The notes: generated by a model not told the origin, from the letters alone. A DNA stretch of 64,000 nt from a virus (IMGVR_UViG_3300036802_000003:75245-139244), one strand, 5' to 3'; numbered from the stretch's first letter, positions 18,275 through 49,008 are shown. Program-made: numbers and translations.

Positions 18275-20131
18275 ATGGAACTGTATATAAACATAAGCAA
18301 AGGGATGCACACACTCAACACTGGTAAGCTGACACGTAAGCGTGTAATGGTTAAGGGGAAGAATGGGAGAACGTTCTATCGTATGCAATGGGTGAATCCA
18401 TGGGATGCTAGTACTGGTCATGGTGTGAGGGCAATACACAATGGCAAACAGTTAGATGAGGCAATACGACATGGCATTACCAGACAGCCTAACCTACAGC
18501 AACACCTATCTCATCAAGGTATACACTCAACACTAGACTTAAAGGATAAACTACACTTTGACCATCCTCTGTTCTTACCTGAGACAGAGGAATCATCACA
18601 AGGGGCAATGTTCTTAGCCAACCATATACAGCATGGTAGTCAGAAGTACCTTGGTATGTTTGATAACGACATCTACCAACACTCCAGAGAGATGAGCAAG
18701 ATAGATGACATAACAGGTATGGAAGAGGCTGAACGCATGAGTTCACTAGGGGCTAAGCTACCTAGCTCTTTCCTTGAGACCTTAGATGAAGGCTCAACAG
18801 TGGATATAGGCTGGTCTGTATCTAAGATGAATGGTGCTGATATGGACAGAGCCAAGGAGTTAGCTAAGATGACCTATGGTGAGGACAGTATCCAGTATAA
18901 TGCCATTAAGGATATGGAGCCAGACCCAGATAAGCAAGAGCAAGGGGAACAGAAGGTAGAGCATGTAATAGAGCCTAAGGATGAGAAGCCTGCATACGGC
19001 ACACCAGAGGACTACCGCCCACATTACCATACTCATGATGAGAAGATTAACAACATGACTGAGTGGCGTAGGGAAGCCACTGAGAAGGAGATGCAAGGGA
19101 AGAACAAAAAGGAAGCAATCACCCAGAGTATAGACTTTGATGAGTTGGAGAGTATGGATGAGGATACAGTAGCTGACATGCTAGAAGACCAAGACAAGTA
19201 TGGTGACCTGCATGAGCAACATGAGACAGCAATGAAGCATATGCTTAACAGTCAGCTAGAGGCTGCTAAGGAGTCAGCTAAGGATGTCTTTGGTGAGCTA
19301 TCACCTACAGCCATTGAGCATGTGTTCAGCTCACCTGAAGGTAAGTATACTGCTCACATATCATCCATTAAGCCTGACATAATGAACTTGGGTATGGGCA
19401 AGTATGATGTCAACTGGTCTATGAGTATCAAGCTTAAATCAAAGGATGGATACCATGCTGGTAACATCAACCGTACAGTTGGACGTGACCATGATGGTTC
19501 ACTGGTGGTGCATAACGACTTGCTAGAGGTGGATGAGGACTACCAGAACATAGGCATTGCAAGCAATGTGTATAACAGAAGTGAACAGATGTGGAAGCAT
19601 ATGGCAAAGGGCAACAAGGTTAAGATAAGCATATGTGCTAACATCACAGTAGGTGCTTATGCATGGGCTGACAAGAGCAAGGGCTTTGACTTTGCTGATA
19701 GCTATGAGCTAAAGGCTGCTAGGTCTGAGCTTAAGGACTTCATAAGTAACAACAATTGGGATGAAGAGGAAGTCATGCAAGCCTGTGGATATGAGAATGT
19801 GGATGAGCTAGAGCATGCTTGGGAGTTCGCTGAACTGGATGATGGATACAGGTATGACCTAACACCACATGCCTTTGAGGATATCAAGGGTGATGCCCAC
19901 TTGGGCAAGGCATTCATGCTTACTAGTAAGTCCTCATGGGAAGCTGAGAAGCATATCAATACTGATGGCAAGGCATACCAAGAGCAACTACGTGATGATA
20001 AGGTTGATGACTATCTAGCTGACACAGGGGATGAAGACCTAGACTATCTAGACCTAGATGATGACATGGATGATATCAGTGATGAAGAGCTAGAGCAATA
20101 CTCAAGACTAATGGACAAGGAGAAGATGTAG
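18275..20131 (+). CDS. tagged putative head-packaged protein with C-terminal GNAT acetyltransferase-like domain
   Basis: Start 18275 (MELYINISKG); shared N-terminal tag; EVDEDYQNIGIASNVY = GNAT motif A; paralog of 43536..44849. Confidence 0.6.
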   Translation: MELYINISKGMHTLNTGKLTRKRVMVKGKNGRTFYRMQWVNPWDASTGHGVRAIHNGKQLDEAIRHGITRQPNLQQHLSHQGIHSTLDLKDKLHFDHPLFLPETEESSQGAMFLANHIQHGSQKYLGMFDNDIYQHSREMSKIDDITGMEEAERMSSLGAKLPSSFLETLDEGSTVDIGWSVSKMNGADMDRAKELAKMTYGEDSIQYNAIKDMEPDPDKQEQGEQKVEHVIEPKDEKPAYGTPEDYRPHYHTHDEKINNMTEWRREATEKEMQGKNKKEAITQSIDFDELESMDEDTVADMLEDQDKYGDLHEQHETAMKHMLNSQLEAAKESAKDVFGELSPTAIEHVFSSPEGKYTAHISSIKPDIMNLGMGKYDVNWSMSIKLKSKDGYHAGNINRTVGRDHDGSLVVHNDLLEVDEDYQNIGIASNVYNRSEQMWKHMAKGNKVKISICANITVGAYAWADKSKGFDFADSYELKAARSELKDFISNNNWDEEEVMQACGYENVDELEHAWEFAELDDGYRYDLTPHAFEDIKGDAHLGKAFMLTSKSSWEAEKHINTDGKAYQEQLRDDKVDDYLADTGDEDLDYLDLDDDMDDISDEELEQYSRLMDKEKM

Positions 20132-20296
20132 ATGAGTGATAAACTGAGACAGTTCACAAGTGTTAAGCCTAAGCATAAGATTGAGGGCACAGAGGGATTA
20201 ATCAAGACTAAGGATGGCAAGACAATAAGAGATGACAGCTGGCTCCACCCTAGTGCTGGAGTGAAGAGGAAGAACCCAGAGGTACGGGGTGGGTAG
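20132..20296 (+). CDS. small basic protein (54 aa) with D-x-W-x-H-P motif
   Basis: Hand-translated MSDKLRQF...RDDSWLHPS...; AGGAG SD; immediately after stop of GNAT gene. Confidence 0.6.
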   Translation: MSDKLRQFTSVKPKHKIEGTEGLIKTKDGKTIRDDSWLHPSAGVKRKNPEVRGG

Positions 20297-20598
20297 GCAC
20301 CACCCCCCCCTATCTCTAACCCCCACCCCCTAAAGTTTTCTTTTTTGCCGTAGGTAGGAGTCCCGTTTCCTTTGGGAGTCTCACACCTGCCCCAACCCGA
20401 CCGCCTTACACACCAACTTGTATCTTTTCGCATCCCCACATCACCCCCTACCCCCGACACTCCCCAATATACCCCCACCCACCTTTTCTAACCCCCCCCA
20501 CCCTTATTTTCACCCTATAAAAAAGTACGTCACCTCCTTTTTCGTAGAAAAGAAAACTTTTTTCTTTCGCATTCTTTTTAGTAAGGAGGGAAGAGAGC

Positions 20599-20943
20599 AT
20601 GCCTAACATAAAGTCAGAACCACCTACTCTTAACATTCACGGTATGGATATTCCTATAATCATACCTGGCAACATGAGATTTCAGATAAGGAATAGAACT
20701 GCCTACTTTGAACTGCATAGGATAATGCTACCTAAGGAGCTTATGGGAGTGCTGACCAACCATGTGTGGGCTGAAGGATACTTGAAAGTATTCATCGGTG
20801 TAATGTTTGCAGGAGAAGAGTATAACTATATGTCCTATAGAGGTCACATAGGAATTAGTAGCTACGAAGAGAAATCCGTAGAACGAGATATGTTGGTTCT
20901 AGAACATGTTCACTTTGTATTACATTTGATAGGAGGAGAATAA
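20599..20943 (+). CDS. tandem paralog array member 1
   Basis: LNIHGMDIP...RIMLP. Confidence 0.75.
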   Translation: MPNIKSEPPTLNIHGMDIPIIIPGNMRFQIRNRTAYFELHRIMLPKELMGVLTNHVWAEGYLKVFIGVMFAGEEYNYMSYRGHIGISSYEEKSVERDMLVLEHVHFVLHLIGGE

Positions 20944-20944
20944 A

Positions 20945-21295
20945 ATGGGAATTACTGTTACTGATAAGAGTAGTCTTACTATTAAAGGCGTAGAGATAGA
21001 CCACGAGGGGTTAAGGCTGGAAATGGCACCAAATGGAGGGGCTATTATCCATGTCAAGTCTATAACCTTACCTGAGGGGGACTGGAACCGCATACGAGAA
21101 AGTAAGACAGAGGTCTCTGCTATGCATACTAAGACTGTAGTTACTGACGGTAGCAAAGGGAGCACTTCTATAGCAAACAGAGCATTTACAGGTAAATTAG
21201 CTTCTGCTAGCTACTACTCAAAGCATACATCTGATTACATGGACGTTATCGGAGGGGTTACTCTTCGAGTTAATCCTAGTTGGGTGGTGGAGTAA
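20945..21295 (+). CDS. tandem paralog array member 2
   Basis: LTIKGVEIDH...SITLP. Confidence 0.75.
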   Translation: MGITVTDKSSLTIKGVEIDHEGLRLEMAPNGGAIIHVKSITLPEGDWNRIRESKTEVSAMHTKTVVTDGSKGSTSIANRAFTGKLASASYYSKHTSDYMDVIGGVTLRVNPSWVVE

Positions 21296-21633
21296 TGCAC
21301 GTAACACACAGTGAGCTAACAATTGATGGGCTAGATATACCACACGTGGCTGAAGAGATGCTGATATCAGGCAAGGTGTTTCACGTACAATTTATGGGGG
21401 ATGGTGGAGCTAAGGTATTCAACGATAATCTAACTATCCCTACCTACATCTATGAGAGGCAGGCAGAAGGGTTACCGTTTAAGCTAGTTCGACACTACAA
21501 CTTTGGTGCCACTACAGGCACTATCACTACACAGGGAATGCTTAGATACATCCACTGTGAGGACAGTCACAATCCGACAGAAGGTAGTATTCATCTGTCA
21601 AAAGCTGTCTTTAGAATAGAGGAGGCACTATAA
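21295..21633 (+). CDS. tandem paralog array member 3
   Basis: LTIDGLDIPH...NLTIP. Confidence 0.75.
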   Translation: MHVTHSELTIDGLDIPHVAEEMLISGKVFHVQFMGDGGAKVFNDNLTIPTYIYERQAEGLPFKLVRHYNFGATTGTITTQGMLRYIHCEDSHNPTEGSIHLSKAVFRIEEAL

Positions 21634-21989
21634 TGGAAGTAAGCACGCTAGCAATTGGTGGGTTTAATATACCCCATACTCAAAAGGCTGATTTGGTATT
21701 GGGCAAGCCCTTTTATATTGAAAGAGTACTAGGAGACAGATGGGACATATTCACTCATAGTATTACTCTGCCTGCTGGCTTATATGATAAGATAAATGAG
21801 CCAGGTGGTCGTCAGCACTTTGCCTTACTACACCAAGCATCTCCAGAGGATAAAGAGAACTATACCCTGCATCAGGGATTCACTGAATACTGTGCTGCTA
21901 CTACAGTGGAACGTGACGGAGACAGTGTTCATTTAAAACAAGCACGTTTCCGTATTACTCCATACTTAGGGAGGAAAAGTGATGAGTAA
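21633..21989 (+). CDS. tandem paralog array member 4
   Basis: LAIGGFNIPH...SITLP. Confidence 0.75.
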   Translation: MEVSTLAIGGFNIPHTQKADLVLGKPFYIERVLGDRWDIFTHSITLPAGLYDKINEPGGRQHFALLHQASPEDKENYTLHQGFTEYCAATTVERDGDSVHLKQARFRITPYLGRKSDE

Positions 21990-22296
21990 ATCTATTGTCT
22001 TGTTTGGTACTACTTCTGTCGTTCACAGGGGATGTTCTGTTGAGGTATTGCCTGATGGGGGTGCCTTGGTGAGAGTGGATAGGATGACCATCCCAGCAGA
22101 CCTATGGAACAAGTCCATTTGTGACAGGGACTTTAGGGTAAAGATAATTCTCTCTAAGGAGGAACATGTTGTAGGTACATCAGGTATAGTAACTAGTGCA
22201 ACCTATGACAAGGGAGATGGCATTCAGAACCTAGGAGTAATGAGAAATGTATCCCTTGGCTTGGCACGAGTGATACAATCAGGAGGTGGCAGATAA
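21982..22296 (+). CDS. tandem paralog array member 5
   Basis: VLFGTTSVVH...RMTIP. Confidence 0.7.
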   Translation: MSKSIVLFGTTSVVHRGCSVEVLPDGGALVRVDRMTIPADLWNKSICDRDFRVKIILSKEEHVVGTSGIVTSATYDKGDGIQNLGVMRNVSLGLARVIQSGGGR

Positions 22297-22646
22297 TGGC
22301 TAACCAAGAAGTAGACTTATCCTTCATGCATAGATTTAAGAGAGAAATGGAAGTAGTACCCTCTAACCTATGGTTGGGAGGGGTAGAAATCAAGCATCAA
22401 ATGGAGCCACAAATGATAGACCTTAGCAGCCCTTTATCAACACATGTCAGAATAAAGAGAATGGTTATTCCTACACCAATCATGGATTCTTTTATGAATA
22501 ATGAGATAGTCAGCTTTAAACTAGAGCACACCAGTAATACTCATGCTTTGGAAGGGGAATGTTGCTTACACTCCTGCATGGAGGGTCATGCTAGCAACCA
22601 CTACCGAGCATTAGAAGATGTACTACTAACCGTCAGAGTTAAATGA
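22296..22646 (+). CDS. tandem paralog array member 6
   Basis: LWLGGVEIKH...RMVIP. Confidence 0.75.
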   Translation: MANQEVDLSFMHRFKREMEVVPSNLWLGGVEIKHQMEPQMIDLSSPLSTHVRIKRMVIPTPIMDSFMNNEIVSFKLEHTSNTHALEGECCLHSCMEGHASNHYRALEDVLLTVRVK

Positions 22647-22704
22647 TACGAGGGAGAGGACTTTTGGTCTTCTCCTTCTTTTAATGTGAAGGGAGGGAGA
22701 GACG

Positions 22705-22914
22705 ATGAAGAAGGTGGAAAACATAGAGTGGGCTGGACATTGTGCCGAGTGCTTTACGTGTGGGGCGTTTGCACCTAATATGAAGGAGTTCCACAAGCAA
22801 TTAGACAAAGGACATTGGAGTAAGCGTCCATTAGCAGTAAACAATATGAGAATCAGTCAGCAATATATGCATAACTGTGAGAAAGCAAAGGAGGATAACA
22901 ATGGGCAATTATAA
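22705..22914 (+). CDS. hypothetical Zn-binding protein
   Basis: ORF with SD; CxxC, H, C. Confidence 0.65.
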   Translation: MKKVENIEWAGHCAECFTCGAFAPNMKEFHKQLDKGHWSKRPLAVNNMRISQQYMHNCEKAKEDNNGQL

Positions 22915-23206
22915 AGGAGCGCATCCGTGTCTATACTGGCACTTAAAGCCAGGGTATTTCATGTACATGACTTCTGGTGTGAAGAAACAGATTAAGCTAT
23001 TTGGTATTCCATTATTTAAGGTTAGGAAGTGGGAAATGTTTGAGGTACTAGACACATCAGATAAGCGTGATGGCATGATAACAGTGCACGCTAAAGGTAC
23101 TGAAACTGGCATAGAAATGAAGTTTACTCGTCGTAGCACAGCAGAGACAAGCTATTATGTTATAGAGAAAACTGAAATTATTAAGCAAGGAGTGATTGAC
23201 GTATGA
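22901..23206 (+). CDS. hypothetical protein
   Basis: AGGAGG SD before MGNY. Confidence 0.7.
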   Translation: MGNYKGAHPCLYWHLKPGYFMYMTSGVKKQIKLFGIPLFKVRKWEMFEVLDTSDKRDGMITVHAKGTETGIEMKFTRRSTAETSYYVIEKTEIIKQGVIDV

Positions 23207-23526
23207 GAAAGTCACTAATAGGCTTGGGAGTGTTTGCTTTACTAATAGCTGGGTGCTCTACTGGTGCTGAAGCTAAGAAGAAAGAGAAGGAACGTCCTCT
23301 AATGAGCTACCGTGATAAGCAGTTTAAGAACGATACTGGTCCAGGGTATACCTTTAATAACTGGGTTGTGGACACACGTACAGGTTGCTTAATATCCTCT
23401 GTTGCTTGGGGCAAGGATGATTCAGGGATGACACAGGTTTTAGACCCAGAAGGTAAGCCTGTAGGGTGTTACAAAGCTGGTGGGATGTCTGTAGAAGATT
23501 ACTTCAACCTACCACAGGATAAATAG
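23203..23526 (+). CDS. lipoprotein
   Basis: Signal peptide with lipobox LIAGC. Confidence 0.75.
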   Translation: MRKSLIGLGVFALLIAGCSTGAEAKKKEKERPLMSYRDKQFKNDTGPGYTFNNWVVDTRTGCLISSVAWGKDDSGMTQVLDPEGKPVGCYKAGGMSVEDYFNLPQDK

Positions 23527-23537
23527 GAGGTAAGGAG

Positions 23538-23801
23538 ATGAGCAGAATCATGACACCATTCTTTGGTAAGTGGGATGATAATGAAGACAAGAATACTGTG
23601 GAACCTAAAGAACCTAGCCAACCTAGAAAGCATGTAAATATGTCAGAGAAGGACTTCAGGGTATCAGTATTAAAAGGTCTTGTAGCAATTGAGCATGCAA
23701 TTCGTACTGGTAATAGACACTACTGGGCAAGTGATATGGAGATGGCAGTGCGCATGGCACAGTCTATGAGGGAGGATGATGGTAATGAACAAGGCAGTTA
23801 A
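23538..23801 (+). CDS. hypothetical protein
   Basis: ORF with SD. Confidence 0.7.
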   Translation: MSRIMTPFFGKWDDNEDKNTVEPKEPSQPRKHVNMSEKDFRVSVLKGLVAIEHAIRTGNRHYWASDMEMAVRMAQSMREDDGNEQGS

Positions 23802-24096
23802 GGTACTGGAAGCTCTTATGTATGGTATTGATGTGAAGATGGATGGTCATGAATTAGTCTACTCTAGGGAGCATGAAGGGGTATTCATTAAGGGTGAGAA
23901 GTTTGAGCATGGTCAATTAGTCGAGCAAGGCAAAGGTACTCCAGTGCTACTAAATGCCGACTTTGACCTTAACTATTTCATTCGTAAGTGTGAAGAGATG
24001 CCTGACCATGAGATACTAGGTATCTGTGGCAGTCTTGCACTTACTAAACAGGTTCATGCTAAGAGGAAGCCTAGGAAGGGGGTAGGGGATGAATAA
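23785..24096 (+). CDS. hypothetical protein
   Basis: ORF with SD. Confidence 0.7.
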   Translation: MNKAVKVLEALMYGIDVKMDGHELVYSREHEGVFIKGEKFEHGQLVEQGKGTPVLLNADFDLNYFIRKCEEMPDHEILGICGSLALTKQVHAKRKPRKGVGDE

Positions 24097-24223
24097 GGTA
24101 ACTATTGCCTACTTTGTTGTAGTTGCTGTACTGGTTTGTGCCTTCTTCTACTGCATGGGCAGGTCAGATGGTAACATGGAAATGTATCATAAACTGGTAG
24201 AGGAAGGGCTGATAAAGGAATGA
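24089..24223 (+). CDS. small membrane protein (44 aa)
   Basis: Hand-translated MNKVTIAYFVVVAVLVCAFFYCMG...; overlaps both neighbours. Confidence 0.55.
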   Translation: MNKVTIAYFVVVAVLVCAFFYCMGRSDGNMEMYHKLVEEGLIKE

Positions 24224-24417
24224 AGTACTTCTGGGGTGGTTTTGCTGGTGCTTTCTTGTGTGTAATCGTTAGCTTGGGAACGTGGTCAGTATTAGATTCT
24301 CTGTATGATAAAGGCTATGACAAAGGCGTTAAGGTAGGCATCGAGCAAGGCAAGAAGGATGCTATGAAAGACATTGAACTTAGCTACGATATGTGTGTTA
24401 AGAAGAAAGGGGAGTAA
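24220..24417 (+). CDS. small membrane protein
   Basis: N-terminal TM + YDKG/EQG repeats. Confidence 0.65.
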   Translation: MKYFWGGFAGAFLCVIVSLGTWSVLDSLYDKGYDKGVKVGIEQGKKDAMKDIELSYDMCVKKKGE

Positions 24418-24420
24418 CAC

Positions 24421-30429: not shown

Positions 30430-33264
30430 GTGATGAGCAGAGGTAGAAAGTGTTATATTCGCATAGACAACCCTAAAGGTACTAAAAAGAAGGATAAAAA
30501 GAAAGATGAATTAGTACACGAGTTAGGACTAGAGAATTTCAAGAATGACCTACGCCCAGAGGTATGGAAGAGTAATGAGCCAGAGCTGATTATTAAGTCT
30601 GATGAGGAGTACATAGAAGAGTACTTTGACTTAGAGAAAATAATCCACGAGGAAGAGGTAGCAAAGGCAGGACGAGTCCATCTTCCTAGGGGTGCTAGAC
30701 GTCACGCTTACAAAGTGCATTCTGACCACGGTGTAATTTACATTCCAGTCAATCGTTTGAAGCAGGTGTACCAAACTCACCTAGCACTTCATAGGAGAAA
30801 AATCGCCCAAAACAAAGTTTCGATGCGAATGGGTAAGCCACTTCAACCCGTTGAAATCGGATATAATTATGATGTTCACGATGGGCATCATAGATGGGAA
30901 GCCTCCAAAGAGCTAGGATACACACACGTTCCTTGTAAGGTAGTAGGGGATGACCCAGACAAGTTAAGGGACGCAAAAGAGAAGTATCGTGCTGTATGGA
31001 AAGCAGAAACACCTGAACAGTTAGCAGAGACTTTACTACAGGACTTTGTAGATAAGCTAACGGGTAAGAAACCTGTGTCCTTGGTACTTGACATTAACAA
31101 AGCCACTCTTAACAGAGGAAAGTTAGTTAAGAGACGTGTAATGGTTAAGGGTAAGGATGGAAAGGTCTTCTATCGCATGCAGTGGATTGACCCTAATGAT
31201 GAGAAGGCAGATATCCACCAAAAAGTACCTGACCAAGAGAATCACACAACATACAAGCATGATGATAAGTCAGTAAAGGAAATAGAAAAAAGACAGCATA
31301 ACCGTTTTCCAGTAGTACAACATGAGGTAAAGCACTTCAAGAATAAGGAACACAATTACTCTACTGACAAGGAAGCCTACAATGAAGCTAAGGAGAAATA
31401 CCACAGAGGTGAGAAGCTACAGCCTGTTAAGGTCAACCATAAAGGGGAGATACTTGAGGGACATCACCTTGTAGACCTAGCTAGAGAGTTAGGATTAACT
31501 CATGCTCCTGCAATTGTATTAGGTAATCCTAAATTGAAGAAAGAGTATGAGGATGCACTAAAAGAGGACGTAATGACTGAAGTTACTGACGAGGAAGGTA
31601 ATAAGAAGGAAGTATCCGCTTCTGGTAAAGGTACCTCTGCTGATGGAACACAACGTGGTCAGCATATGGTCGTAGACGTTCCTGTAGAATATGTAGATGA
31701 TATGGAACACTTCAAGCGTTATGTCAATAAGATGTATACTAAATCATACATCATGGATTGTGCAGAAAAGGCTGGCATTACATGGAATGATAAGAAGGCA
31801 GACGGAACTCTACTAACAGATGAGAAGATTCTATGGACTAGGGTTTTCAACTCTATATCTGAACACATAGCTGCTGGTAATAAGTTTGAAGTGCCTCATG
31901 ATGATAAGGACTCTAGTGCAAAGATGAAACAGATTAAGAAGGATGATGACCACAAGTTCTTCCTTATGTTCTGTAATAAGTTTAACTTTGACAGGGAAAA
32001 GATTAAGGACTGGTGTAGAGACCATGACCTTCTATGGAAAGAGAACCATAAAGACCCTGATATTGATTGGAAAAACTGTGCTATGGCTATCAAGAAAGAA
32101 TTATCTAAAGGTAAGATGCTGAATGGGGTACGTACAAGACGTAAACACCTTATGGAGGAAGCAAATACTATTGTAACAGATGCAGTTCGTGAACAGGTTA
32201 AAGCCCTTGGTAAGAAGTATGGCAAGACAGCTTTAGAAGAACAAGCACTAAAACAAGGTATTGAAGTAGACCTTCTAGATAAGAAAGGTAACGTAGTAGA
32301 ACACCCAGCTATCAGATGGATGAGGGTAGCGACTGCTATTCAGAAGCATATTGCCAAAGGTAATAAGTTTAAGATGACTAATGACGATTTCGGTACAGAG
32401 GGAAGAATTCAAGCTGAAGAGTTTGATTATGGTGACAACGTTACTCTGACTCCACATGAGCGAGTAGGTATCGATAGAGCCAAGCTTAACAGTAAGAAAT
32501 TTGAACAACGTGCTAAGAAGTGGGCTACCAAGTCATTAGCTCTTGACCACGGTATTGACCCTAGCAATACAGTAATGGTAGATGAAGTGTACGATGCCTT
32601 TGTTGAAGGTGCTCGTAATGCTAAGTTAATGGTGCACTTTGACCCTACAGAATTACTGGATAGTGGTACGTCTATGCTAGAGGAAATGATGTCTTCAGGT
32701 AAGCTAAAGAACGATTTCCAACTAGATAGAGGGTATGATAATGAGCATAGAGAGGTTATCGAACGTGATATCTACGGTGATGACTTTGATGGTGCAGAAG
32801 ACCATGAGCGCCCAGTATATGGTGTGCTAGACATATTCAATCAAGGCTTGAGCCTAGGACAACATGGTGGAGCAGCCTTAGTAATGAAGGAAGATGTTAA
32901 GAAACGTGCCTCTGGTACACCAAATGACTCTAACTCAATCCCTTATGGCAAAGAGGGCAAACTAGTGCACTCTGCTACAGACCCACATCACCTAGTAATA
33001 CACCGTTGGTTTGGGCGTTGGAAAGAGCCTAAGAATGCTGATGGTAAGCGTAGACGTGCTATGAACTCCGTTATTGAGGGTACAACATTCAATGACGATA
33101 AAGAGTACTTTGAAGCACAGGTACTTGGGGGAGTGGACTTGGCTAAGGATGTAGACCATATTCTAGTACCAGAACACTGGCAAAGTAACTCAGAGTGGCA
33201 AGACCATCATGAGCTAATGAAAATGTTTGCAGAGTCACAAGGGATAGGATTAAGATATGAGTGA
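30430..33264 (+). CDS. tagged multidomain putative head protein: two ParB/Srx-like domains, helical repeats, C-terminal DUF3626-like domain
   Basis: DGHHRWEA and EGHHLVD ParB-N motifs; ERPVYGVLD...YFEAQVLGGV; internal tag at 31081-31194. Confidence 0.65.
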   Translation: MMSRGRKCYIRIDNPKGTKKKDKKKDELVHELGLENFKNDLRPEVWKSNEPELIIKSDEEYIEEYFDLEKIIHEEEVAKAGRVHLPRGARRHAYKVHSDHGVIYIPVNRLKQVYQTHLALHRRKIAQNKVSMRMGKPLQPVEIGYNYDVHDGHHRWEASKELGYTHVPCKVVGDDPDKLRDAKEKYRAVWKAETPEQLAETLLQDFVDKLTGKKPVSLVLDINKATLNRGKLVKRRVMVKGKDGKVFYRMQWIDPNDEKADIHQKVPDQENHTTYKHDDKSVKEIEKRQHNRFPVVQHEVKHFKNKEHNYSTDKEAYNEAKEKYHRGEKLQPVKVNHKGEILEGHHLVDLARELGLTHAPAIVLGNPKLKKEYEDALKEDVMTEVTDEEGNKKEVSASGKGTSADGTQRGQHMVVDVPVEYVDDMEHFKRYVNKMYTKSYIMDCAEKAGITWNDKKADGTLLTDEKILWTRVFNSISEHIAAGNKFEVPHDDKDSSAKMKQIKKDDDHKFFLMFCNKFNFDREKIKDWCRDHDLLWKENHKDPDIDWKNCAMAIKKELSKGKMLNGVRTRRKHLMEEANTIVTDAVREQVKALGKKYGKTALEEQALKQGIEVDLLDKKGNVVEHPAIRWMRVATAIQKHIAKGNKFKMTNDDFGTEGRIQAEEFDYGDNVTLTPHERVGIDRAKLNSKKFEQRAKKWATKSLALDHGIDPSNTVMVDEVYDAFVEGARNAKLMVHFDPTELLDSGTSMLEEMMSSGKLKNDFQLDRGYDNEHREVIERDIYGDDFDGAEDHERPVYGVLDIFNQGLSLGQHGGAALVMKEDVKKRASGTPNDSNSIPYGKEGKLVHSATDPHHLVIHRWFGRWKEPKNADGKRRRAMNSVIEGTTFNDDKEYFEAQVLGGVDLAKDVDHILVPEHWQSNSEWQDHHELMKMFAESQGIGLRYE

Positions 33265-34751: not shown

Positions 34752-35213
34752 ATGAAGGGTATCAATCATTACAAGGTTCTCTCTAATGCCTATGGCAGAA
34801 AAGAACTATTAGAAATGGGTAAGAACAATGGTCTTAGTTGGCAGGAGGATAACGGACGTGAAGGTGTCAACTGGATGAGATTTAGTAGGGCGTTAGTAAA
34901 GCACCTAGATGAGGACAAACACTTTGACACTGACAGTACAGATACAGAGTCCCTACAGTCAATGCTGGATCAGTATACTCAGTTGAGAGATATGCATAAG
35001 CAAACTATGATTCCTCATGTAAGAGCTGGGTTGTCTAAGTTGTACTCTCAAGGAGATGCAACTAGCAAAGACCCTATGGAATATCTCCCTAAAGTATATG
35101 ACCACTTAGATGCCAATGGTGGACACGTGTGGGCTGAGAAAGTAAGGACTCTGGGTAGTCTTAATAGTCAGATTAAGGGTATAACTGAAAAACTCTCTAC
35201 GAGACAAGTTTAG
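34752..35213 (+). CDS. protein with one helical repeat module
   Basis: YGRKELLEMGKNNGLSWQE...VNWMRFSRALVKHL. Confidence 0.75.
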   Translation: MKGINHYKVLSNAYGRKELLEMGKNNGLSWQEDNGREGVNWMRFSRALVKHLDEDKHFDTDSTDTESLQSMLDQYTQLRDMHKQTMIPHVRAGLSKLYSQGDATSKDPMEYLPKVYDHLDANGGHVWAEKVRTLGSLNSQIKGITEKLSTRQV

Positions 35214-37589: not shown

Positions 37590-38330
37590 AACAGTAAGAG
37601 ACAGTAGACTGTCAGGGTTACAAACTAGACTAAGTGGCTTGTAGGTCAATGCCTAAGTCTTGTACCTGATTGGTGTAGCAGCAGCCACGATGACCACTAG
37701 ACCATAGCTGTTTTTGTAGGATTCACAGCATGTAAGAGTGTTGTATACTAACTATACTAAGTGTGGTTAGAAAGTCAAATTTTTAGCTTACTGGTGACGG
37801 AAAACACCAACAAGCACCCCACTAAAGGTAGGAAAGGTACCCTACACGCTAGTGCCTTTAGCATTAGTTACCAGAGATGCAGGATACACCGCCCTGCTTA
37901 GTGGAAGTCACTTTGCCAGTATGTACTGGCACTATCACATATCACAAAGATATGTTTGTAAATTTTATTAGCTCAATTAATCTTGAGTGCTAACACTAGG
38001 TAGAGCAGACTACCGAATATAAAAAGCATTCCACACTATCAAGCCAGATTGATAGACGCACATAGGGGGCGTACCTGTGGTCTTAAACGGGGGTAAAGGC
38101 AGACTGGTGAGTCCGATACCTCTGGGTTCCCTATTACTACATAATATTTTCCCCAAGGCTCTGCTAGATGACGGTTTCGATGTCCGTTACAAGTACAGGG
38201 AGTAGCTACCCTAGGAACGTATAAAATGGCAGCCTTCTAGTATCCCCCAGATTAGGGTTCGATTCCCTGTTACTACTTAACTAGTACTGGTCTAGCTAAC
38301 CGTGGAACGTGTAGTAATATCTTGGAGAAG
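37590..38330 (+). ncRNA. candidate large structured ncRNA
   Basis: About 700 nt without ORFs next to tRNAs; many hairpins; T-loop AGGG-TTCGATT-CCCT near the 3' end. Confidence 0.35.
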
Positions 38331-38544
38331 TCTTGGGGAAGGTATTATGTGTCTTCCCACATAGTAGCTTCACTGTACTGAAACTGGGACTACATCCCCA
38401 GATTTGTGTCCAGATGACTCAACTTTTGATACAATCTTGTCAACTGCGGTAGGGCTTGAACAACCCCTACCCCTCTTTATGTCTACAACATCACAGAATA
38501 CTCACACCTTAGATACTGATTTCGATTTTAAATCACAGGGGGTA

Positions 38545-41615: not shown

Positions 41616-41683
41616 GTATTTCCAAGGTACACAAGGTGGAGTATTTGTTGCTCCACCTTATATTAATGTAAGGGGGACTACAC

Positions 41684-42538: not shown

Positions 42539-42735
42539 TTACACTTTTAGTGTTATGTATAGGATTATTTTTAGGTGCAGGTGCAATTTTGGTGTTAACA
42601 GGTATACAAATAAAGGGAGACAGTGAGTACATTGTTAACTTTACAATCGTGTGTATTCTCTTCATAGTGTTCTGGTTGTCCCTTGGGGGTATAATTCAGA
42701 GCATAGTATATTTAATCACAGGGAGGTTTATATAA
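42535..42735 (+). CDS. small membrane protein
   Basis: Two TM segments. Confidence 0.65.
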   Translation: MITLLVLCIGLFLGAGAILVLTGIQIKGDSEYIVNFTIVCILFIVFWLSLGGIIQSIVYLITGRFI

Positions 42736-42950
42736 TGGCTTTTACGATTTTAAAATGGAATTCTAAGTACGGTGGAGACGCTAAGTTTGTGGTGAGAGAT
42801 GATGATACAGGTAAGCAGAGCTTATTTACTCCAGGTAGGGCACAGGACGTAATATTCACTAATACTGATATCTCTAATTCCCCAGAGATTAGTAAGTGGG
42901 AAGATTTTGGCAACGAAACAGTAGACAATCTTGAGGACGTAGCATTCTAA
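42735..42950 (+). CDS. hypothetical protein
   Basis: GGGAGG SD before MAFTILK. Confidence 0.65.
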   Translation: MAFTILKWNSKYGGDAKFVVRDDDTGKQSLFTPGRAQDVIFTNTDISNSPEISKWEDFGNETVDNLEDVAF

Positions 42951-43471
42951 TGAAGAATAGCTATGAGGTGAGAGGGGATGTAACTGCTATCTTTCTTAAG
43001 AAGAAGGATGGCACGGTTTTAGAGACTCTGATTGATACCTCTGATTTAGAATTTGTAGGTTCTATACGTGGAACATGGTATGCTAACTGGGATAAAACCA
43101 TACAAGGATATTATGTGAAAGCAGGAATCTCTAGAGATGGTACAGTGAAGAAGATACCCTTACACAGATTTATAATGGGTGAACCAAAAGGACTTACCAT
43201 AGACCATAGGAACCATGATACTCTTAATAACACTAAAAATAACCTAAGACCACTCACTTCCAAACAGAATCAACAAAATAGGAAGAGGGTTAGTAATAGG
43301 AACACTAGTGGAGAGCGTGGGGTTTCTTGGCACAAAAGAGACCAGAAATGGATAGGTCAGGTAGTAGTTGATGGAGTTAGGCATTGGATAGGTGGCTTCG
43401 AGGATAAGCAAGAGTGTATAGAAGCTGTCAGAAAGGCAAGAAAAGAGCTACTACCATATTCCACAAACTAG
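42950..43471 (+). CDS. HNH homing endonuclease with AP2-like domain
   Basis: LHRFIM...IDHRNHDTLNN..NNLR...N; TSGERGVSW. Confidence 0.9.
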   Translation: MKNSYEVRGDVTAIFLKKKDGTVLETLIDTSDLEFVGSIRGTWYANWDKTIQGYYVKAGISRDGTVKKIPLHRFIMGEPKGLTIDHRNHDTLNNTKNNLRPLTSKQNQQNRKRVSNRNTSGERGVSWHKRDQKWIGQVVVDGVRHWIGGFEDKQECIEAVRKARKELLPYSTN

Positions 43472-43535
43472 GTATAAGCAGAGCATAGACGCTCTGCTTA
43501 TTTTTATTTAAAGAGAAGTCTGGAGGTGGGTTAAA

Positions 43536-44849
43536 TTGGAACTAATAATAGACGTATCCAAGGCAAGAGTACTTAACACAGGTAAGCTAGTCAAACGTGC
43601 GGTACAGGTAAAAGGACAGGGTGGTAGAACATTCACTCGTATGCAATGGATAAATCCTGATAAAGGTAAACCAGTAATGGAGACATCACATGAAGGACAT
43701 GAAGACCCTCATGCACATAGAGTAGCTAGTATGAGTCCTGAACAGAAGCATTCTATGGTTAATCACTTTGTATCTAATAATAGGGATGAAGCGAATGACC
43801 TAGCAATGACTACAGGACAGAAGAGAGCACCTTATGTAGCAGACCATCAGGTTGCCCAGCACTTAATGGATCATGCACACAAGATACCCCATGAATACGT
43901 GAAAGACCACTTAGACAGTAAAGAGTCAAAGCCTAGTCTAAATGTAGTGGGAAGTGACCTTCCAGAGAAGGAAGTTAACAAGCGTATGGGTAAGGAAGGT
44001 AGCTTAGACTTGTCCAAACTCAATACAGGGGCTTCAATGTATGATGATGACATCTTTAAAGAAGATACAGAGTATGCCCAAGATGAAGGTCTTAACCCAG
44101 AGAAGGAATTTAGGCATGTATTCAAAGACGTTACTAAAGCTGGTATTGAGAATGTATTTTCTGACCCTAAGGGTAACTGGACTGCACAGGTATCAGGTTA
44201 TGACCTATTCCAGGATGGGGATAACGTGAACTGTGGCTTAAACATGACCCTATACGACAAGGATGGGGAGAAGATGGGACACATCATACGTTCAGCTTAC
44301 CATGATGCAGATGGTACTCTACAGATACACAATGATGAGATGGAGTTAAAGACACAGTATCATGGTAAAGGGGTAGCACAAACTATATACGACAGGTCTG
44401 AGCAATTATGGAGACACCTATCAGGTGGACATAAAGTAGAGATAAATCTGACAGCCAATATTAGTGTTGGTGCCTATGCGTGGTCTAAGAAAGGCTTTGA
44501 TTTTGCTAATGACAAGGAGTTAAAGATGGCTAGGGAAGAACTGAAACACTTCTGTAGAGGTAACGATATTAGTCTAGCGGATGTGCTCAAAAAGAGTGGA
44601 TACAAGGGTATAGATGACCTCAACCACTCATGGCAGTTCTCTACACTACAGAATGGTAAATCTTATGAACTTGACAAAGTTATAGACCCTAAATATAAAA
44701 AGGATGTTGAGGGTAGAGAAGGTCATTTTGGTAAGGCTTTCATGCTAGGCGGATTGGGTATATGGGACGGTAAAAAGACACTAAACGATGACCATTCTTC
44801 AGAAAAAGTAGGTGAAATACATGGCAGAGCAACTAAAAAGAACAGCTAG
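43536..44849 (+). CDS. tagged putative head-packaged protein with GNAT acetyltransferase-like domain
   Basis: N-terminal tag; ELKTQYHGKGVAQTIY motif A; paralog of 18275..20131. Confidence 0.6.
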   Translation: MELIIDVSKARVLNTGKLVKRAVQVKGQGGRTFTRMQWINPDKGKPVMETSHEGHEDPHAHRVASMSPEQKHSMVNHFVSNNRDEANDLAMTTGQKRAPYVADHQVAQHLMDHAHKIPHEYVKDHLDSKESKPSLNVVGSDLPEKEVNKRMGKEGSLDLSKLNTGASMYDDDIFKEDTEYAQDEGLNPEKEFRHVFKDVTKAGIENVFSDPKGNWTAQVSGYDLFQDGDNVNCGLNMTLYDKDGEKMGHIIRSAYHDADGTLQIHNDEMELKTQYHGKGVAQTIYDRSEQLWRHLSGGHKVEINLTANISVGAYAWSKKGFDFANDKELKMAREELKHFCRGNDISLADVLKKSGYKGIDDLNHSWQFSTLQNGKSYELDKVIDPKYKKDVEGREGHFGKAFMLGGLGIWDGKKTLNDDHSSEKVGEIHGRATKKNS

Positions 44850-47800
44850 AAAAGTACCTCCTTACCGTCACGGTAGAGAAGGTATGAGTAGTGAAGGTGA
44901 TGCTTGGATGCATCCAGAAGTGTTTGATGACGATTACGAACGAAAAACGAATTCTGACATAAGACGTTATATGGGTTCTCTGACGAAATCCAATCGTTTG
45001 GTTGTTGACATTAACAAGGCTGAAGCACCGAAAACTGGTAGGTCTTTGAATAGAGGAAAATTGGTCAAGAGAGCGGTACAAGTAAAAGGGAAAGATGGTA
45101 AGATGTTCACTCGTATGCAATGGGTAGACCCGAATGATGACCACCAAATACAATCACACCCTCTACACCAAGAGCCTTCACTGGAGGGTACTAAGCCTAC
45201 TTCTTCTAAAGACCCTAGTGAGATGTCACGAGAAGAATACGTAGACCATCACGTTCGTAAGAAAATGTCTAAAGAAGAGAAGTACGATATGCTAGAGAAA
45301 CATGGTGTCGAGTGGAAGCGAAATAACCATGAAGCTATTGACCATAAGAATGCTGTAATGGCTCTTAAAAACCATCTATTAAAGAATCCTCACCTTATTG
45401 GTGCACACAACAATAAGGAAGCAAAGGATATTGAGAAGCCAATAACAGGTACAGATGATGAGAATGAGTTTTGGAATATGTGGGATAAGGCTGACAGAGA
45501 GGGTTCATATGAGCTTATGCGTAAGCTGGGTATCATCGACAAGGATGAGCAAGACCCTAGATTCGACCCTAATGTAAAGGAAAATATGAAGCCTATTAAA
45601 CATTTACTGAATGTTACTCGTTTGAAGAAGCATCTACGTGAGAATAGACATCTCATGACTGACCCTGAGTATCTTCCTACAAAGGATACAAATGCAACTA
45701 AGGCTGCTAAAAAGCAATTAGAAGATAAGAAACAAGGTATTAAGCCATCTCCTGCACAAGCAGGTGGTAATGATGTCCACACTATTTTAGCTAATATGCC
45801 AAGGGAACAGTTGTATAAGCTGATGAAGGATGCAGGTGTATCAGATGAAGACCCACTTATCACAGGAGATAAGATGGCAGGGGTTAAGCACCACCTTAAT
45901 ATGATTAAGTTCAAGAAGCACCTAGAACAACACCCTGAAATACTAACTCACAATCCTGATGGTTCTCTTACAGAAGGTGAGAAGGAACGTATTGCTTCCC
46001 TACCTGAAGAGGCTAAAGAACGTGACCGTATTAAGAGCTTTGTGTCTGATATGTCTCAAGAGGACGTAGAGGATGCACTAGACAAATACGCTGACCATGA
46101 TGCAGTTAAGAGCAGGATTAAATCTGACCATGAGGGTATTAACAGTATGCATGCAAAGGGTGCTCTAGTTAAAGTATTCTCTGAAGATAAGGAAAGAATG
46201 AAACCTTATCAAAAAGAGGTAAGTGCTGACAGACTAATGAAGATGCGTATTGGTAATAAGGTTATGGGTAAATTCCTACGTCATGCATTTGGCTTCAAGG
46301 GTATAGGAGACCTAAAAAGACCTGAAGACGATGAGTTCCGTACTACAGAGTGGCAATGGCATGGTAATGGTGGTAGTGGCTCTGCTATGATGGAGAAGAA
46401 CGATGATGGAGATGCAGTACTAACTGTTATAGACTATGGGGAAGATGGTCAAGGGTGGAACGAATTCCAAGTCCCTCTACAGGAGGTTAAGGACTTTGTA
46501 GACGATTTGAGAAAAGGGAACGAACAAAAGAAAAAGGTTGAGCAGAAGGAAGTTCCCCTACAGAAGAAGCCAGCAGACCAGATAGAAAAAGCCCTAAACG
46601 AGAGTTTCGAAAAGAACTACACTCCAGAGGTTGGAGAGGTCATGAAGTCCCACTTTACTAAACTGTGGAATAATGCAGACCGCTCTGGAAAGATTAGTGA
46701 CATCGTGAAGAAGTCTATGAATATGACTAAGGGTACTATGAGGAACTTACTTAAAGAATGGGGTGTTCCAGTCTCCCCTACAGGAGATATTATCAAGACT
46801 AATGACCCTAACTTCAAGTCCATGGTATTCAAGGATGAGATTCAGGATAAGAAGTCTAAGAGTGCTATGGATTACCTTAAAGCAGCAGACATAGGAGTAG
46901 ACCGCAAAGCTACACCTGATGCTCCCTATGACCCTTATGTACTACACGAATCAGCTAAGAACTGGACAGAAGGAGAGAAGGCACAGGCACGTAAGGAGCT
47001 ATTAAAGAATGCAATTCATGTTAAGACTGGTATCACACATGAAGACCATGACAAACGTATAGCAAAACTTACAGACCACCTTCACTCATCTACAACTCAT
47101 ATTCCATTTGACTTGATGAGTCACCTAATGGCAAATGGTATGAAAGTTAAGTTCTCTGATGTAGATGCTCACGGTAATGCTCATACAGGGGCTAACTATA
47201 ATGGTAAGGACAATGCTATTTATCTTGACTCTCAATACTATCATGATAAGTCTGTATTCAAAGACCACCCACATGACCACATACCAGAGAAGACAGAACA
47301 TCCTACTATCAAGGGAGCTAAATACGGTCACTGGAGTATAGGCGAGAATATGGTGCATGAATCTGCCCACGCTATTGACAGATTCCTAAGTGGTGGGGAT
47401 TCCTACTTAAACTGGGATAAAGGTCAAGGTACTACTTATGCTAAAGACCATTTAAATACTGTTCCTGAACATTATAAGAAGAAAGTTGAACAGTCTAACC
47501 CTGATAAGGAGATTAGATATAGCAAGGAAGGAAAGTATTTTTATGTTTTAGATGAGTGGATGTCCAACTATGAAGGACGTGTCTACGGGGAGTACCAAAA
47601 GCTAAATCCTGATTATGTTCACTCTGACAATGATACAGGTAAGATGTATGATAAGAAGTTCCAAGGTGTGGAAGGTATGCATGGTACTGAACACTGGGCT
47701 GAATCGGTAGCAGGTTATGGTAATGCTATTCACTCTTACCAACGTTGGAAAGATATGAATCCAGGTAATAAGTCTACATCCATGGATGAGTGGGCTGAAC

Positions 47801-48081
47801 AGATGCATAAGCAGTATTCACAAAAGGGCTTTGGTACAGCTAATGCAGAAGGTCAAAACTATAAAGCTGGTACAAGCACTAGACCAATGGAATCTTATGG
47901 ATGGCAATACCACACAATGAAACAACACTATCCTGAACTATTTGGTGCAATGCAGTCCATCTTTAATAGACCCGACTTTTTAGGAAGTAAGGGACAGAGC
48001 CGAACAGAGTCAATCCAGCATGGAAACTCAGCTAAGAAATCTCTAGGCTTATTCGTTGATTTGGGAGGGAGCAAGGCATGA
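44821..48081 (+). CDS. tagged putative head-packaged protein with helical repeats and C-terminal zincin metallopeptidase
   Basis: Tag at 44998-45132; VHESAHAID (HEXXH) + EHWAES. Confidence 0.65.
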   Translation: MAEQLKRTARKVPPYRHGREGMSSEGDAWMHPEVFDDDYERKTNSDIRRYMGSLTKSNRLVVDINKAEAPKTGRSLNRGKLVKRAVQVKGKDGKMFTRMQWVDPNDDHQIQSHPLHQEPSLEGTKPTSSKDPSEMSREEYVDHHVRKKMSKEEKYDMLEKHGVEWKRNNHEAIDHKNAVMALKNHLLKNPHLIGAHNNKEAKDIEKPITGTDDENEFWNMWDKADREGSYELMRKLGIIDKDEQDPRFDPNVKENMKPIKHLLNVTRLKKHLRENRHLMTDPEYLPTKDTNATKAAKKQLEDKKQGIKPSPAQAGGNDVHTILANMPREQLYKLMKDAGVSDEDPLITGDKMAGVKHHLNMIKFKKHLEQHPEILTHNPDGSLTEGEKERIASLPEEAKERDRIKSFVSDMSQEDVEDALDKYADHDAVKSRIKSDHEGINSMHAKGALVKVFSEDKERMKPYQKEVSADRLMKMRIGNKVMGKFLRHAFGFKGIGDLKRPEDDEFRTTEWQWHGNGGSGSAMMEKNDDGDAVLTVIDYGEDGQGWNEFQVPLQEVKDFVDDLRKGNEQKKKVEQKEVPLQKKPADQIEKALNESFEKNYTPEVGEVMKSHFTKLWNNADRSGKISDIVKKSMNMTKGTMRNLLKEWGVPVSPTGDIIKTNDPNFKSMVFKDEIQDKKSKSAMDYLKAADIGVDRKATPDAPYDPYVLHESAKNWTEGEKAQARKELLKNAIHVKTGITHEDHDKRIAKLTDHLHSSTTHIPFDLMSHLMANGMKVKFSDVDAHGNAHTGANYNGKDNAIYLDSQYYHDKSVFKDHPHDHIPEKTEHPTIKGAKYGHWSIGENMVHESAHAIDRFLSGGDSYLNWDKGQGTTYAKDHLNTVPEHYKKKVEQSNPDKEIRYSKEGKYFYVLDEWMSNYEGRVYGEYQKLNPDYVHSDNDTGKMYDKKFQGVEGMHGTEHWAESVAGYGNAIHSYQRWKDMNPGNKSTSMDEWAEQMHKQYSQKGFGTANAEGQNYKAGTSTRPMESYGWQYHTMKQHYPELFGAMQSIFNRPDFLGSKGQSRTESIQHGNSAKKSLGLFVDLGGSKA

Positions 48082-48455
48082 AGGTAGTTATTCACAAAGA
48101 CGGAAAATTAGGTACGGTAAAATATAGTAAAGATGGTCAAGCTATGGTGAGCCACCCTGATGCTAAGGTTAGGAAGGATGTAAAGGACTACTTGGATACT
48201 GAACGAGAGTTTACTGTAGCAAACCCTAATACAGACCCTGATGTAGTTGGTTCTAGGAGGAAGCTTTATGCTTCCCCTAAAGCCAATGAAGATACAATGT
48301 CTATGGCTTTGTGTGAGATGTTCCACCATACAGGGGTGCATGTAGACTGGTCTGGCAAGTTATCTAAGGATTTCTTAGGACAGAAGGACAAGAACAGTAA
48401 GACAGATAAGCCTATTGAAAAATCAACAGTAGACGATTTCGATATTATAAACTAG
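48078..48455 (+). CDS. hypothetical protein, possible partner of the upstream gene
   Basis: ATGA overlap; C-terminal IEK|S. Confidence 0.7.
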   Translation: MKVVIHKDGKLGTVKYSKDGQAMVSHPDAKVRKDVKDYLDTEREFTVANPNTDPDVVGSRRKLYASPKANEDTMSMALCEMFHHTGVHVDWSGKLSKDFLGQKDKNSKTDKPIEKSTVDDFDIIN

Positions 48456-48465
48456 GAGGGCTAAC

Positions 48466-49008
48466 ATGAACGATGACACTTTGTTGGTAATATCGCCCAA
48501 GCTTATGGACATCCAGAAGGGTAAGAGTGACCGTAATGGATTAGTACAACAGATACTAACATATGTACGAGATGGTAGAACAATAACTCGTAAACAGTGG
48601 GTACGTAGTGAGTTTGCAGACCACGCTAAGAAAAATGAGGAAGAAAAGAAAGACGTACTATTACGTGAGCAAGAAAGGGAAAGACGTAAGGAAGCTAAGA
48701 AGAATGATGAACAGAATGCGAAAATGGCTACTCAAGATAAACGAGCACGTAAAAAGAAGGTAAAAGAGAAGGAAAAGATGGAAGGACATGGGGAAGGTAC
48801 TAAGCATGTTATCCATGTAGGGGAATACGCTAAGAAGCTAGCAGACCAAAAGAAAAAGCGTATGCAGGAAGAGAAGGATAAGAAGCATAAGCAACAAGGC
48901 GATAAGAAGAAGGATAACAAGAAGAAGGATAAACATGGCTCCTTTGGACAGGCTAAACAGACCAGAGAAGATAATAAAGCAAGTGACAATATGTCTCTTG
49001 GTAAGTAG
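48466..49008 (+). CDS. highly basic protein with divergent tag; putative internal head/DNA-binding protein
   Basis: DIQKG...RDGRTITRKQWV; K/E-rich. Confidence 0.6.
   Translation: MNDDTLLVISPKLMDIQKGKSDRNGLVQQILTYVRDGRTITRKQWVRSEFADHAKKNEEEKKDVLLREQERERRKEAKKNDEQNAKMATQDKRARKKKVKEKEKMEGHGEGTKHVIHVGEYAKKLADQKKKRMQEEKDKKHKQQGDKKKDNKKKDKHGSFGQAKQTREDNKASDNMSLGK

Follow-up and report, generated by a model that had tools for sequence, protein, structure and literature searches.

Why do five proteins with differing domains, encoded close to the head genes of one phage, carry the same short module? The question arises from a 64,000-nucleotide stretch of viral DNA (IMGVR_UViG_3300036802_000003:75245-139244; hereafter the window, with positions counted from its first nucleotide and all the genes described lying on the plus strand). 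Proteins that are packaged in the head and injected into the cell are the first move of a phage against the defences of its host, and good knowledge of them is, as far as we are aware, limited to a few Gram-negative models, namely T4, P1, P22, N4 and the phiKZ group. Four open reading frames (ORFs) of the window contain a strong copy of one module of ~45 residues, which we call the tag, and a fifth, a homologue of SPO1 gp5.3, contains a diverged, significant copy. Each tag combines a lysine site, similar to sites found in the head proteins of the same phage, with a basic beta-hairpin. We propose, with a probability of about 0.55, that the tag serves injected effectors of the polyvalent type as a module for head incorporation and maturation.

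A module conserved at the protein level

The four strong copies lie at 18275..18400 (YINISK↓G followed by the hairpin, where the arrow marks the candidate cut; 103 bits, net charge +8), 31081..31200 (VLDINK↓A and the hairpin; 94.6 bits), 43536..43661 (IIDVSK↓A and the hairpin; 95.4 bits) and 44998..45141 (VVDINK↓A, an insert of 8 residues, then the hairpin; 93.6 bits). The diverged copy 5 lies at 48505..48606 (MDIQK↓G). A narrow profile made of the four strong copies and run on the six-frame translation of the window gave them scores of 93-103 bits, with no further match and only 12.5 bits for copy 5. With a broad profile of 156 tag copies from relatives (150 protein clusters), copy 5 reached 23.4 bits (E = 2.4e-6) and the same domain of SPO1 gp5.3 reached 32.9 bits. 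The whole 139-kb genome contains exactly four strong copies. Pairwise DNA identity among copies is 58-73%, and 37-63% of the identical residues are encoded by different codons, which indicates conservation at the protein level and not a recent duplication. A preliminary description of this DNA had listed all five stretches, each of which is indeed present, and had placed the tag at the start of the proteins; this last point needs correction, as the copy at 31081 is internal (residues 218-265 of its ORF, 218-257 for the stretch 31081..31200) and stands behind a ParB-like domain, and that at 44998 follows a leader of ~60 amino acids.

The consensus in this genome is L-x-[IL]-D-[IL]-x-K↓[AGS], then KLVKKxVxVKGKxGKxFTRMQWVxP. 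Across the 156 copies, a first half, L-[YVF]-[IL]-D-L-x-K-[AGS], is separated by 1-8 variable residues from a second half, L-N-x-x-K-L-V-K-K-x-V-Q-V-[KR]-G-K-N-G-K-x-F-T-R-M-Q-W-V-D-P. The P1 residue is lysine in 135 of 139 copies and the P1' residue is Ala, Gly or Ser in 130 of 135, while G31, in the turn, and W39 are invariant. Site and hairpin are conserved together, internal copies included. An AlphaFold2 model of tagged protein 3 (made from a 22-sequence alignment; mean pLDDT 85) has residues 1-15 disordered and a beta-hairpin at residues 19-40, with strands at 19-26 and 32-40 (pLDDT 54-75), followed by a confident helical domain and then an alpha/beta domain. After the lysine, the tag has a net charge of +5 to +8, the whole tagged proteins being acidic or neutral; the scaffold protein is strongly acidic (pI 4.25, net charge -33). 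Searches of Pfam, NCBIfam, PDB chain sequences and the ESM Atlas returned no match to the tag. Protein 3 also has a second motif in its linker, L-D-L-S-K-L-x-x-G-T (44011-44030, residues 159-165), kept in 22 homologues; it could be a relic of a tag start or a second processing site, although a leucine follows the lysine.

The lysine site recurs in the head proteins

Candidate sites similar to those of the tags occur near the N-termini of four head proteins encoded downstream, as the preliminary description had pointed out. They are DLSK↓S (49174-49188) in the portal (49108..50688; Pfam Phage_portal), DIQK↓S (50789-50803) in the prohead serine protease of the S78, HK97 gp4 family (50747..51511; Pfam Peptidase_S78), DINK↓S (51552-51566) in the scaffold (51525..52346), which has many more x-K-S sites, and NLNK24↓A25 (52424-52438) in the major capsid protein (MCP; 52364..53767). 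The motif D[ILV]xK[SAG] appears 15 times in the proteome of the window, whereas shuffling of the residues gave 3.7 ± 2.0 occurrences (never more than 10 in 500 shuffles). Most of these sites belong either to the tags or to the N-terminal regions of portal, protease and scaffold. For a looser version, [ILVM]xK[SAG], the scaffold shows an enrichment of ~10-fold (14 occurrences against 1.4 expected, z = 11.6) and the protease one of ~7-fold (9 against 1.25 expected, z = 7.3). Such a distribution is what one would expect if a maturation protease degraded the scaffold, as happens in T4 (PMC5694885). The proteases of T4 (gp21) and of phiKZ/SPN3US degrade the scaffold and remove propeptides at one motif, cutting after Glu (PMC5694885).

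Among 39 related IMG/VR loci, an N-terminal Phi-x-K↓[SAG] site is kept in the MCP, scaffold, protease, portal and gp5.3-like proteins, in lineages whose MCP identity is as low as 33-60%. The MCP site persists down to 33% MCP identity and the portal site is conserved as [ILV]-x-K-S-E; when 22 scaffold sequences are aligned, K-S dipeptides are found among the columns that never vary. The MCP site N-L-N-K24↓A25 aligns with D-V-V-K24↓S25 in the MCP of Staphylococcus phage phi812 (PDB 5lii, 463 residues), a protein that was deposited as 439 residues beginning with S25 in PDB 9row, 9rox and 9roz. We read this start as the mature N-terminus. Capsid maturation in A511 and Twort is likewise said to occur at K↓S, in agreement with the phi812 chains that start at Ser25 after D-V-V-K24. 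The published accounts of phages ISP, CKA15, Bc431v3 and Goe2/3 are silent on cleavage sites.

Three other observations concern these proteins and this motif. The SPO1 capsid (PDB 9vel; Gp6.1, 16 chains) is built of an MCP 77% identical to that of the window; its chain was deposited full length and by itself gives no indication of the mature N-terminus. Two distant relatives (IMG/VR contigs L090, at 4261-5934, and L093; 33% MCP identity) have protease and scaffold homology in one open frame and appear to carry a protease-scaffold fusion. Finally, an 84-aa Cys/His-rich ORF (4848-5102) starts with M-N-S-I-N-D-I-Q-K↓S; as it lies in what is the terminal-repeat region of JL and Shanette, we treated this occurrence of the motif as probably due to chance.

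The cargo of the tagged proteins

Behind the tags, the preliminary description had recognized two GNAT domains, ParB-like and DUF3626-like domains, an HEXXH zincin and a basic coiled coil. These identities hold, the GNAT fold as a probable one and the last as a basic tail, and the cargoes do differ, with the reservation that the GNAT-like domains of the genes at 18251 and 43536 are paralogous, so that the five are not all unrelated.

Tagged protein 1 (626 aa; 18251..20131) consists of the tag, an acidic middle part and a GNAT-like C-terminal domain (~19376-19969). Its tag is probably preceded by an 8-aa extension (start at 18251, alternative start at 18275). Tagged protein 3 (437 aa, TTG start; 43536..44849) carries the paralogous domain (~44133-44795) behind the tag and a helical linker. 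In Foldseek, GNAT acetyltransferases make up almost the whole list of top matches of the protein 3 model (best E = 5e-3, probability 1.0). This GNAT-like cargo has no Pfam match; a conserved loop of the H-G-K-G-V-A type is present (cf. the acyl-CoA loop of GNAT enzymes, Q/R-x-x-G-x-G/A). The homologue of protein 3 is called 'PE-PGRS family protein' in the Shanette and JL records, which is likely a misannotation.

Tagged protein 2 (944 aa; 30430..33264) combines in one chain a ParB-like domain (30628-31077), the internal tag, a second ParB-like domain (31321-31584), two helical repeats and a DUF3626 domain (32626-32946), in keeping with the definition of polyvalent proteins as single chains that hold at least two effector-type domains. 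The DUF3626 match (PF12294) scores 31.8 bits, above the cut-off of 27 (E = 1e-7), and covers profile positions 2-117 of 301. ParB_N is found at E = 1.1e-3, below the Pfam cut-off, and ParB-like PHROG families match as well; the first of the two ParB-like domains is homologous to SPO1 gp2.12. The Salmonella effector SopF is an ADP-ribosyltransferase. It belongs to the DUF3626 family (PMC6682159).

Tagged protein 4 (1086 aa; 44821..48081) has, after its leader and tag, three helical repeats, a middle domain and a zincin domain (46909-48036). The HEXXH motif (47356-47370) is kept in all 28 family members checked. The AlphaFold2 model of the zincin (pLDDT 91, pTM 0.90) matched PPEP-1/Zmp1, the catalytic domain of lethal factor and GtgA in Foldseek (best E = 1.4e-2, probability 1.0). 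By tblastn, neither the zincin nor the DUF3626 cargo had other homologues in cultured phages. Protein 5 (48466..49008), which is homologous to SPO1 gp5.3, is composed of an 18-aa leader, the site, the diverged hairpin and a lysine-rich tail, with a net charge of +20 after the site. Its first 55 residues, which include site and hairpin, are ~70% conserved across Spounavirinae and its tail varies. We found no solved structure of SPO1 gp5.3.

Two minor sequence elements accompany these proteins. A helical repeat of ~60 residues (G-[IV]-x-W-K ... H-x-x-I-x-x-M ... K-x-H-[LI]) is found behind the tag in proteins 4 (three copies, 45262-45990) and 2 (two or three copies, 31750-32430). It also forms a stand-alone 153-aa ORF (34752-35213; E = 1.2e-7) and occurs in tagged cargo of relatives (subfamily 2, see below); the PHROGs that contain it carry the label 'transcriptional regulator'. 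A peptide of the form G-x-x-x-x-x-D-x-W-x-H-P is encoded in a 54-aa uncalled ORF (20132-20293) directly after tagged gene 1 and again in the leader of protein 4 (44821-45018), after gene 3; the similarity is weak (BLASTP E = 9e-4 over 14 residues). It also precedes the second tag of the fusion protein P0007.

Gene neighbourhood

The tagged genes are part of the head module. The 3' end of the large terminase gene (TerL; 16594..18270; Pfam GpA_ATPase, E = 2.4e-19) overlaps the start of tagged gene 1. Proteins 3 and 4, an untagged 125-aa ORF (48078..48455) that is kept in relatives, and protein 5 form a tight unit just upstream of the portal gene, with terminator-like hairpins on either side, one of them (43474-43501) immediately 5' of tagged gene 3. 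Three of the five genes thus stand upstream of the portal gene, as first described, with the untagged ORF among them. The SPO1 late-promoter consensus had no match on the plus strand of the window and one relaxed match on the minus strand. Elsewhere in the window, a tRNA-like T-arm sequence (GGTTCGATTCC) is found at 38250-38330, 5' of a 733-aa ORF starting at 38404; the equivalent region of SPO1 and of phage vB_EalM-132 contains tRNA genes.

The window is the right-hand part of a complete phage genome of 139,244 bp with direct terminal repeats. Its DNA is 91% identical to that of Bacillus phage CP-51 (Herelleviridae, Spounavirinae, Siminovitchvirus) and ~90% identical to that of JL and Shanette.

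Distribution of the tag and diversity of its cargo

A profile search over 1.84 billion representatives retrieved 202 clusters with the tag at E ≤ 1e-3, 74 of them at E ≤ 1e-10. In these relatives the tag may stand at residue 1, follow a leader of 20-110 residues or be internal, and some proteins hold two or three copies. Approximately 31 clusters form a subfamily 2, with a leader of ~28 residues, very varied cargo and the tag sequence D-L-x-K-A-M-N-x-x-G-L-V-Q-K-E-V-Q-V-K-G-K-N-G-Q-T-F-T-R-K-Q-W-V; this version of the tag was absent from 185,579 bacterial and archaeal genomes. Among 50,697 records of cultured phages, the tag is found only in the CP-51 group, S4-1 and Exiguobacterium phage vB_EalM-132, with 3-4 copies each. 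(The large terminase of the latter, L002:15631-17274, is named 'tail assembly protein', likely a misannotation.)

In every IMG/VR locus recovered, the tagged genes are directly after TerL or before the gp5.3-like gene and the portal gene, and one contig has the uninterrupted order P3-P4-TerL-x-P5-portal. This portal-terminase neighbourhood is also the one that characterizes the genes of polyvalent proteins in phages. The Pfam domains of the tagged relatives include DUF3626 (15 clusters), ParB, ART-PolyVal, InPase, RadC-JAB, SLOG, LPD1, DUF6582 and DUF5661. We compared the C-terminal 220 residues, since single-linkage clustering of whole cargoes merged almost all of them through shared modules, and obtained at least 21 BLAST-unrelated groups of C-terminal domains among 129 clusters. 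Domains are shuffled around the tag, as in ParB-tag-GNAT and tag-DUF3626 proteins. The notion of a polymorphic cargo, first put forward in the preliminary description, is borne out by the profile search across more than 200 clusters. Polyvalent proteins, with their repertoire of ART, MPTase, ParB, InPase and LPD domains, have been predicted to be packaged in the head and injected (Iyer et al. 2017, PMC5512222; PMC9503650), and the domains predicted behind the tag correspond to this same repertoire. Natural fusions of adjacent tagged genes (P0006, P0007 and P0009) keep an internal tag between their parts, which would be tolerable if a protease separates them.

The same cargo on a MuF anchor

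The strongest indirect evidence on the role of the tag comes from Bacillus cereus phage PBC5. A tblastn search against cultured phages (a word-based search gave tagged relatives only) matched the GNAT-like cargo to the C-terminus of a 667-aa 'minor capsid protein' of this phage, with 32% identity over 186 residues (E = 1e-25). The corresponding gene, PBC5_004, is the second after TerL and its product has a Phage_min_cap2/Phage_Mu_F N-terminus. MuF/gp7 is an established head-internal anchor of such effectors (PMC5512222; PMC9503650), and a C-terminal effector domain shared with other anchors, here the GNAT-like domain common to PBC5_004, is one of the features by which MuF effectors are defined. 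Neither PF04233 nor PF06152 had any match in the complete 139-kb genome or in the five tagged proteins. The same cargo is thus carried by MuF in PBC5 and by the tag in this phage, which suggests that the tag does the job of the anchor.

A model for loading and maturation, and its rivals

We infer the following course of packaging, cleavage and injection. The tagged proteins would be made alongside the head proteins and built into the prohead, where the S78 protease would cut after the lysine (Asp at P4, Ile or Leu at P3, Lys at P1 and Ala, Gly or Ser at P1'). The cut would remove a short N-terminal peptide or, for an internal tag, split off the part upstream, and the mature enzymes would keep the basic beta-hairpin as their new N-terminus. 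The mature cargo would comprise GNAT-fold acyltransferases, a ParB protein with a SopF-like putative ADP-ribosyltransferase, an M34-like zinc protease and a small basic protein of the gp5.3 type, which would remain in the head, exit with the DNA and act on the host early in infection. The partner of the hairpin may be the very acidic scaffold or, perhaps, the packaged DNA. With internal tags, whatever lies upstream (in protein 2, for example, the ParB domain) would be set free within the head, which fits the natural fusions mentioned above, and the module would be a processing joint as much as a label. A stronger form of the proposal, which we advance only tentatively and consider doubtful, is that the hairpin loads proteins into the prohead as a portable domain, whatever its position in the chain, remains on the mature protein and binds a conserved part of the prohead, such as the scaffold. 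It would then define a polymorphic effector-delivery system, matured by the protease and replacing MuF in SPO1/CP-51-type phages, and attaching the 45-residue module to any protein would lead to its packaging and its injection into Bacillus cells.

Several facts weigh against the proposal that the tag loads effectors into the head. Its best-conserved part, the hairpin, is downstream of the putative cut, whereas the targeting sequence of T4 is removed. As no solved structure or library family holds the tag, its fold and partner rest on a model of moderate confidence. The Foldseek E-values of both cargo folds, GNAT and zincin, are above 1e-3. SPO1 has the gp5.3 copy and a nine-residue peptide on gp2.12 and possesses no tagged enzymes, so that the enzyme-carrying system would be a feature of the CP-51 branch and of uncultured relatives. 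This peptide, M-[DE]-L-x-[IL]-D-L-x-K↓[SGA], also deserves attention in its own right. It heads, without the hairpin, ParB-like proteins encoded directly after TerL, namely SPO1 gp2.12 (L057:2643-3266; M-D-L-H-I-D-L-N-K↓S) and two metagenomic homologues (L051:3664-6375 and L020:11782-14412). Its presence there suggests that the SPO1 ParB-like protein may be a processed head protein too, and it implies that the peptide, and not the hairpin, may be the address.

Accordingly, the most serious rival, which we judge unlikely, is that the address is a short T4-like L-x-I-D-L-x-K peptide ending in the cut site and that the hairpin does another job, in which case its task might be to bind the packaged DNA, so that the protein exits together with it, to retain the protein in the head or to serve the protease as an exosite. 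The peptide-headed ParB-like proteins beside TerL speak for this reading, and the length and position of the peptide fit the 10-20 residues of the T4 capsid-targeting sequence (CTS); the positive charge of the hairpin and its place on the mature protein also agree with it. However, peptide and hairpin are conserved together in 150 clusters, the hairpin, with its invariant G and W, is the better-conserved half, and the internal tags indicate that an N-terminal position is not needed. What stands of the modular address label first suggested is a real and mobile protein-level module on differing cargoes in a head-gene context, with the address itself perhaps confined to the nine residues.

The tagged proteins might instead never enter the virion. 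They would be phage enzymes that act within the cell, with the hairpin as a domain that binds nucleic acids or proteins, and the likeness of the motif would be fortuitous or due to another protease. A basic hairpin is indeed compatible with DNA or RNA binding, and the ParB-like and helical-repeat modules exist in untagged proteins as well, including the 153-aa ORF. We nevertheless find this improbable: the motif occurs 4 times as often as expected, chiefly in the tags and the head proteins, in all lineages the genes remain linked to TerL and portal, the same cargo is found on MuF in PBC5, and the 185,579 bacterial and archaeal genomes lack the subfamily-2 tag. Equally hard to favour, and if anything less probable, is the idea that these are packaged structural or assembly proteins bound to the portal or the shell, like SPP1 gp7, with enzymes that act in morphogenesis or on the packaged DNA. 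It would account for the ParB-like protein kept beside TerL even in SPO1 and for the gp5.3-like proteins being core genes beside the portal gene, and a zincin could function in assembly. Yet the cargo is polymorphic, with its many unrelated C-terminal families, it is shuffled between tags in a way typical of conflict effectors and not of assembly factors, and its ART, InPase and JAB domains match predicted injected polyvalent proteins.

Comparison with known loading systems

By analogy, the module that we propose for head incorporation and maturation would work like the T4 CTS, the MuF-anchored effectors and the ejection proteins of the phiKZ group, and it belongs to none of them by sequence or defining features. 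The CTS is carried by the T4 internal proteins IPI-III and Alt (Mullaney and Black 1996, as summarized in PMC5694885). As far as that summary goes, it is a short common N-terminal element on different head-internal proteins that ends at a prohead-protease site, and the tag, with its candidate site, would resemble it in this. The T4 scaffold contains the motif many times over and is cut there, the internal proteins are injected with the DNA, and one may compare a small basic internal protein with gp5.3/protein 5. Within the same limits, the two elements differ in that they lack sequence similarity, that the cut would follow Lys in the tag and follows Glu in T4, and that the proteases are of the S78 HK97 type and gp21, respectively. 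The CTS, by definition a peptide that is both required and enough for entry into the prohead, lies upstream of the cut and is removed, whereas the hairpin of the tag follows the cut and would be retained, and the tag module also occurs internally and in 2-3 copies per protein.

The effectors anchored by MuF/SPP1 gp7 share with the tagged proteins a constant element for head association (a proposed role in the tag) joined to variable effectors, genes beside portal and terminase, an overlapping cargo (ART, InPase, ParB, JAB, metallopeptidase and LPD1) and, in PBC5, the very same GNAT-like domain. However, the anchor here would be a hairpin of ~30 residues with a candidate protease site instead of a MuF domain of ~110-250 residues, and this genome, devoid of MuF, has several separate tagged genes instead of one giant protein. 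The ejection proteins of phiKZ, 201phi2-1 and SPN3US are, as we propose for the tagged proteins, multiple head-internal proteins, paralogous to one another and processed by the prohead protease at one motif, with N-termini kept between diverged paralogues and MCP and portal processed at the same motif (PMC5694885, PMC10052503). They differ by their propeptides of ~100-160 aa, which are removed, by their motif, A/S-x-E, and by having no retained shared domain described. In the Dar system of P1 (DarA, DarB, DdrA, DdrB, Hdf and Ulx), large enzymes, including the ParB-domain protein DdrB, enter the head during morphogenesis, some are proteolytically processed, and they are injected and protect the DNA (PMC9024508; PMC5512222); unlike the tagged proteins, they are incorporated through a hierarchy of partner proteins, have no known common 45-residue tag and belong to an unrelated phage lineage. 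Our literature search found nothing that links a capsid-targeting sequence to Herelleviridae or SPO1, nor any description of the module.

Implications

The principle of loading proteins into the head is already known from T4, P1 and Mu-type phages, and the tag itself is annotated in none of the libraries searched. If our proposal is true, the tag would be a simple sequence signature with which to list the injected proteome of Herelleviridae-type Bacillus phages. This proteome would comprise more than 200 clusters, mostly without assigned function, among them putative ADP-ribosyltransferases, acyltransferases and a zinc protease. By the same proposal, the S78 prohead protease of this group should be specific for D-[IL]-x-K↓[SAG] and cut behind the Lys, and the 45-residue module would offer a handle to load chosen proteins into the heads of Gram-positive phages. 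For the biology of these viruses, it would account for how effectors are loaded in phages that lack MuF.

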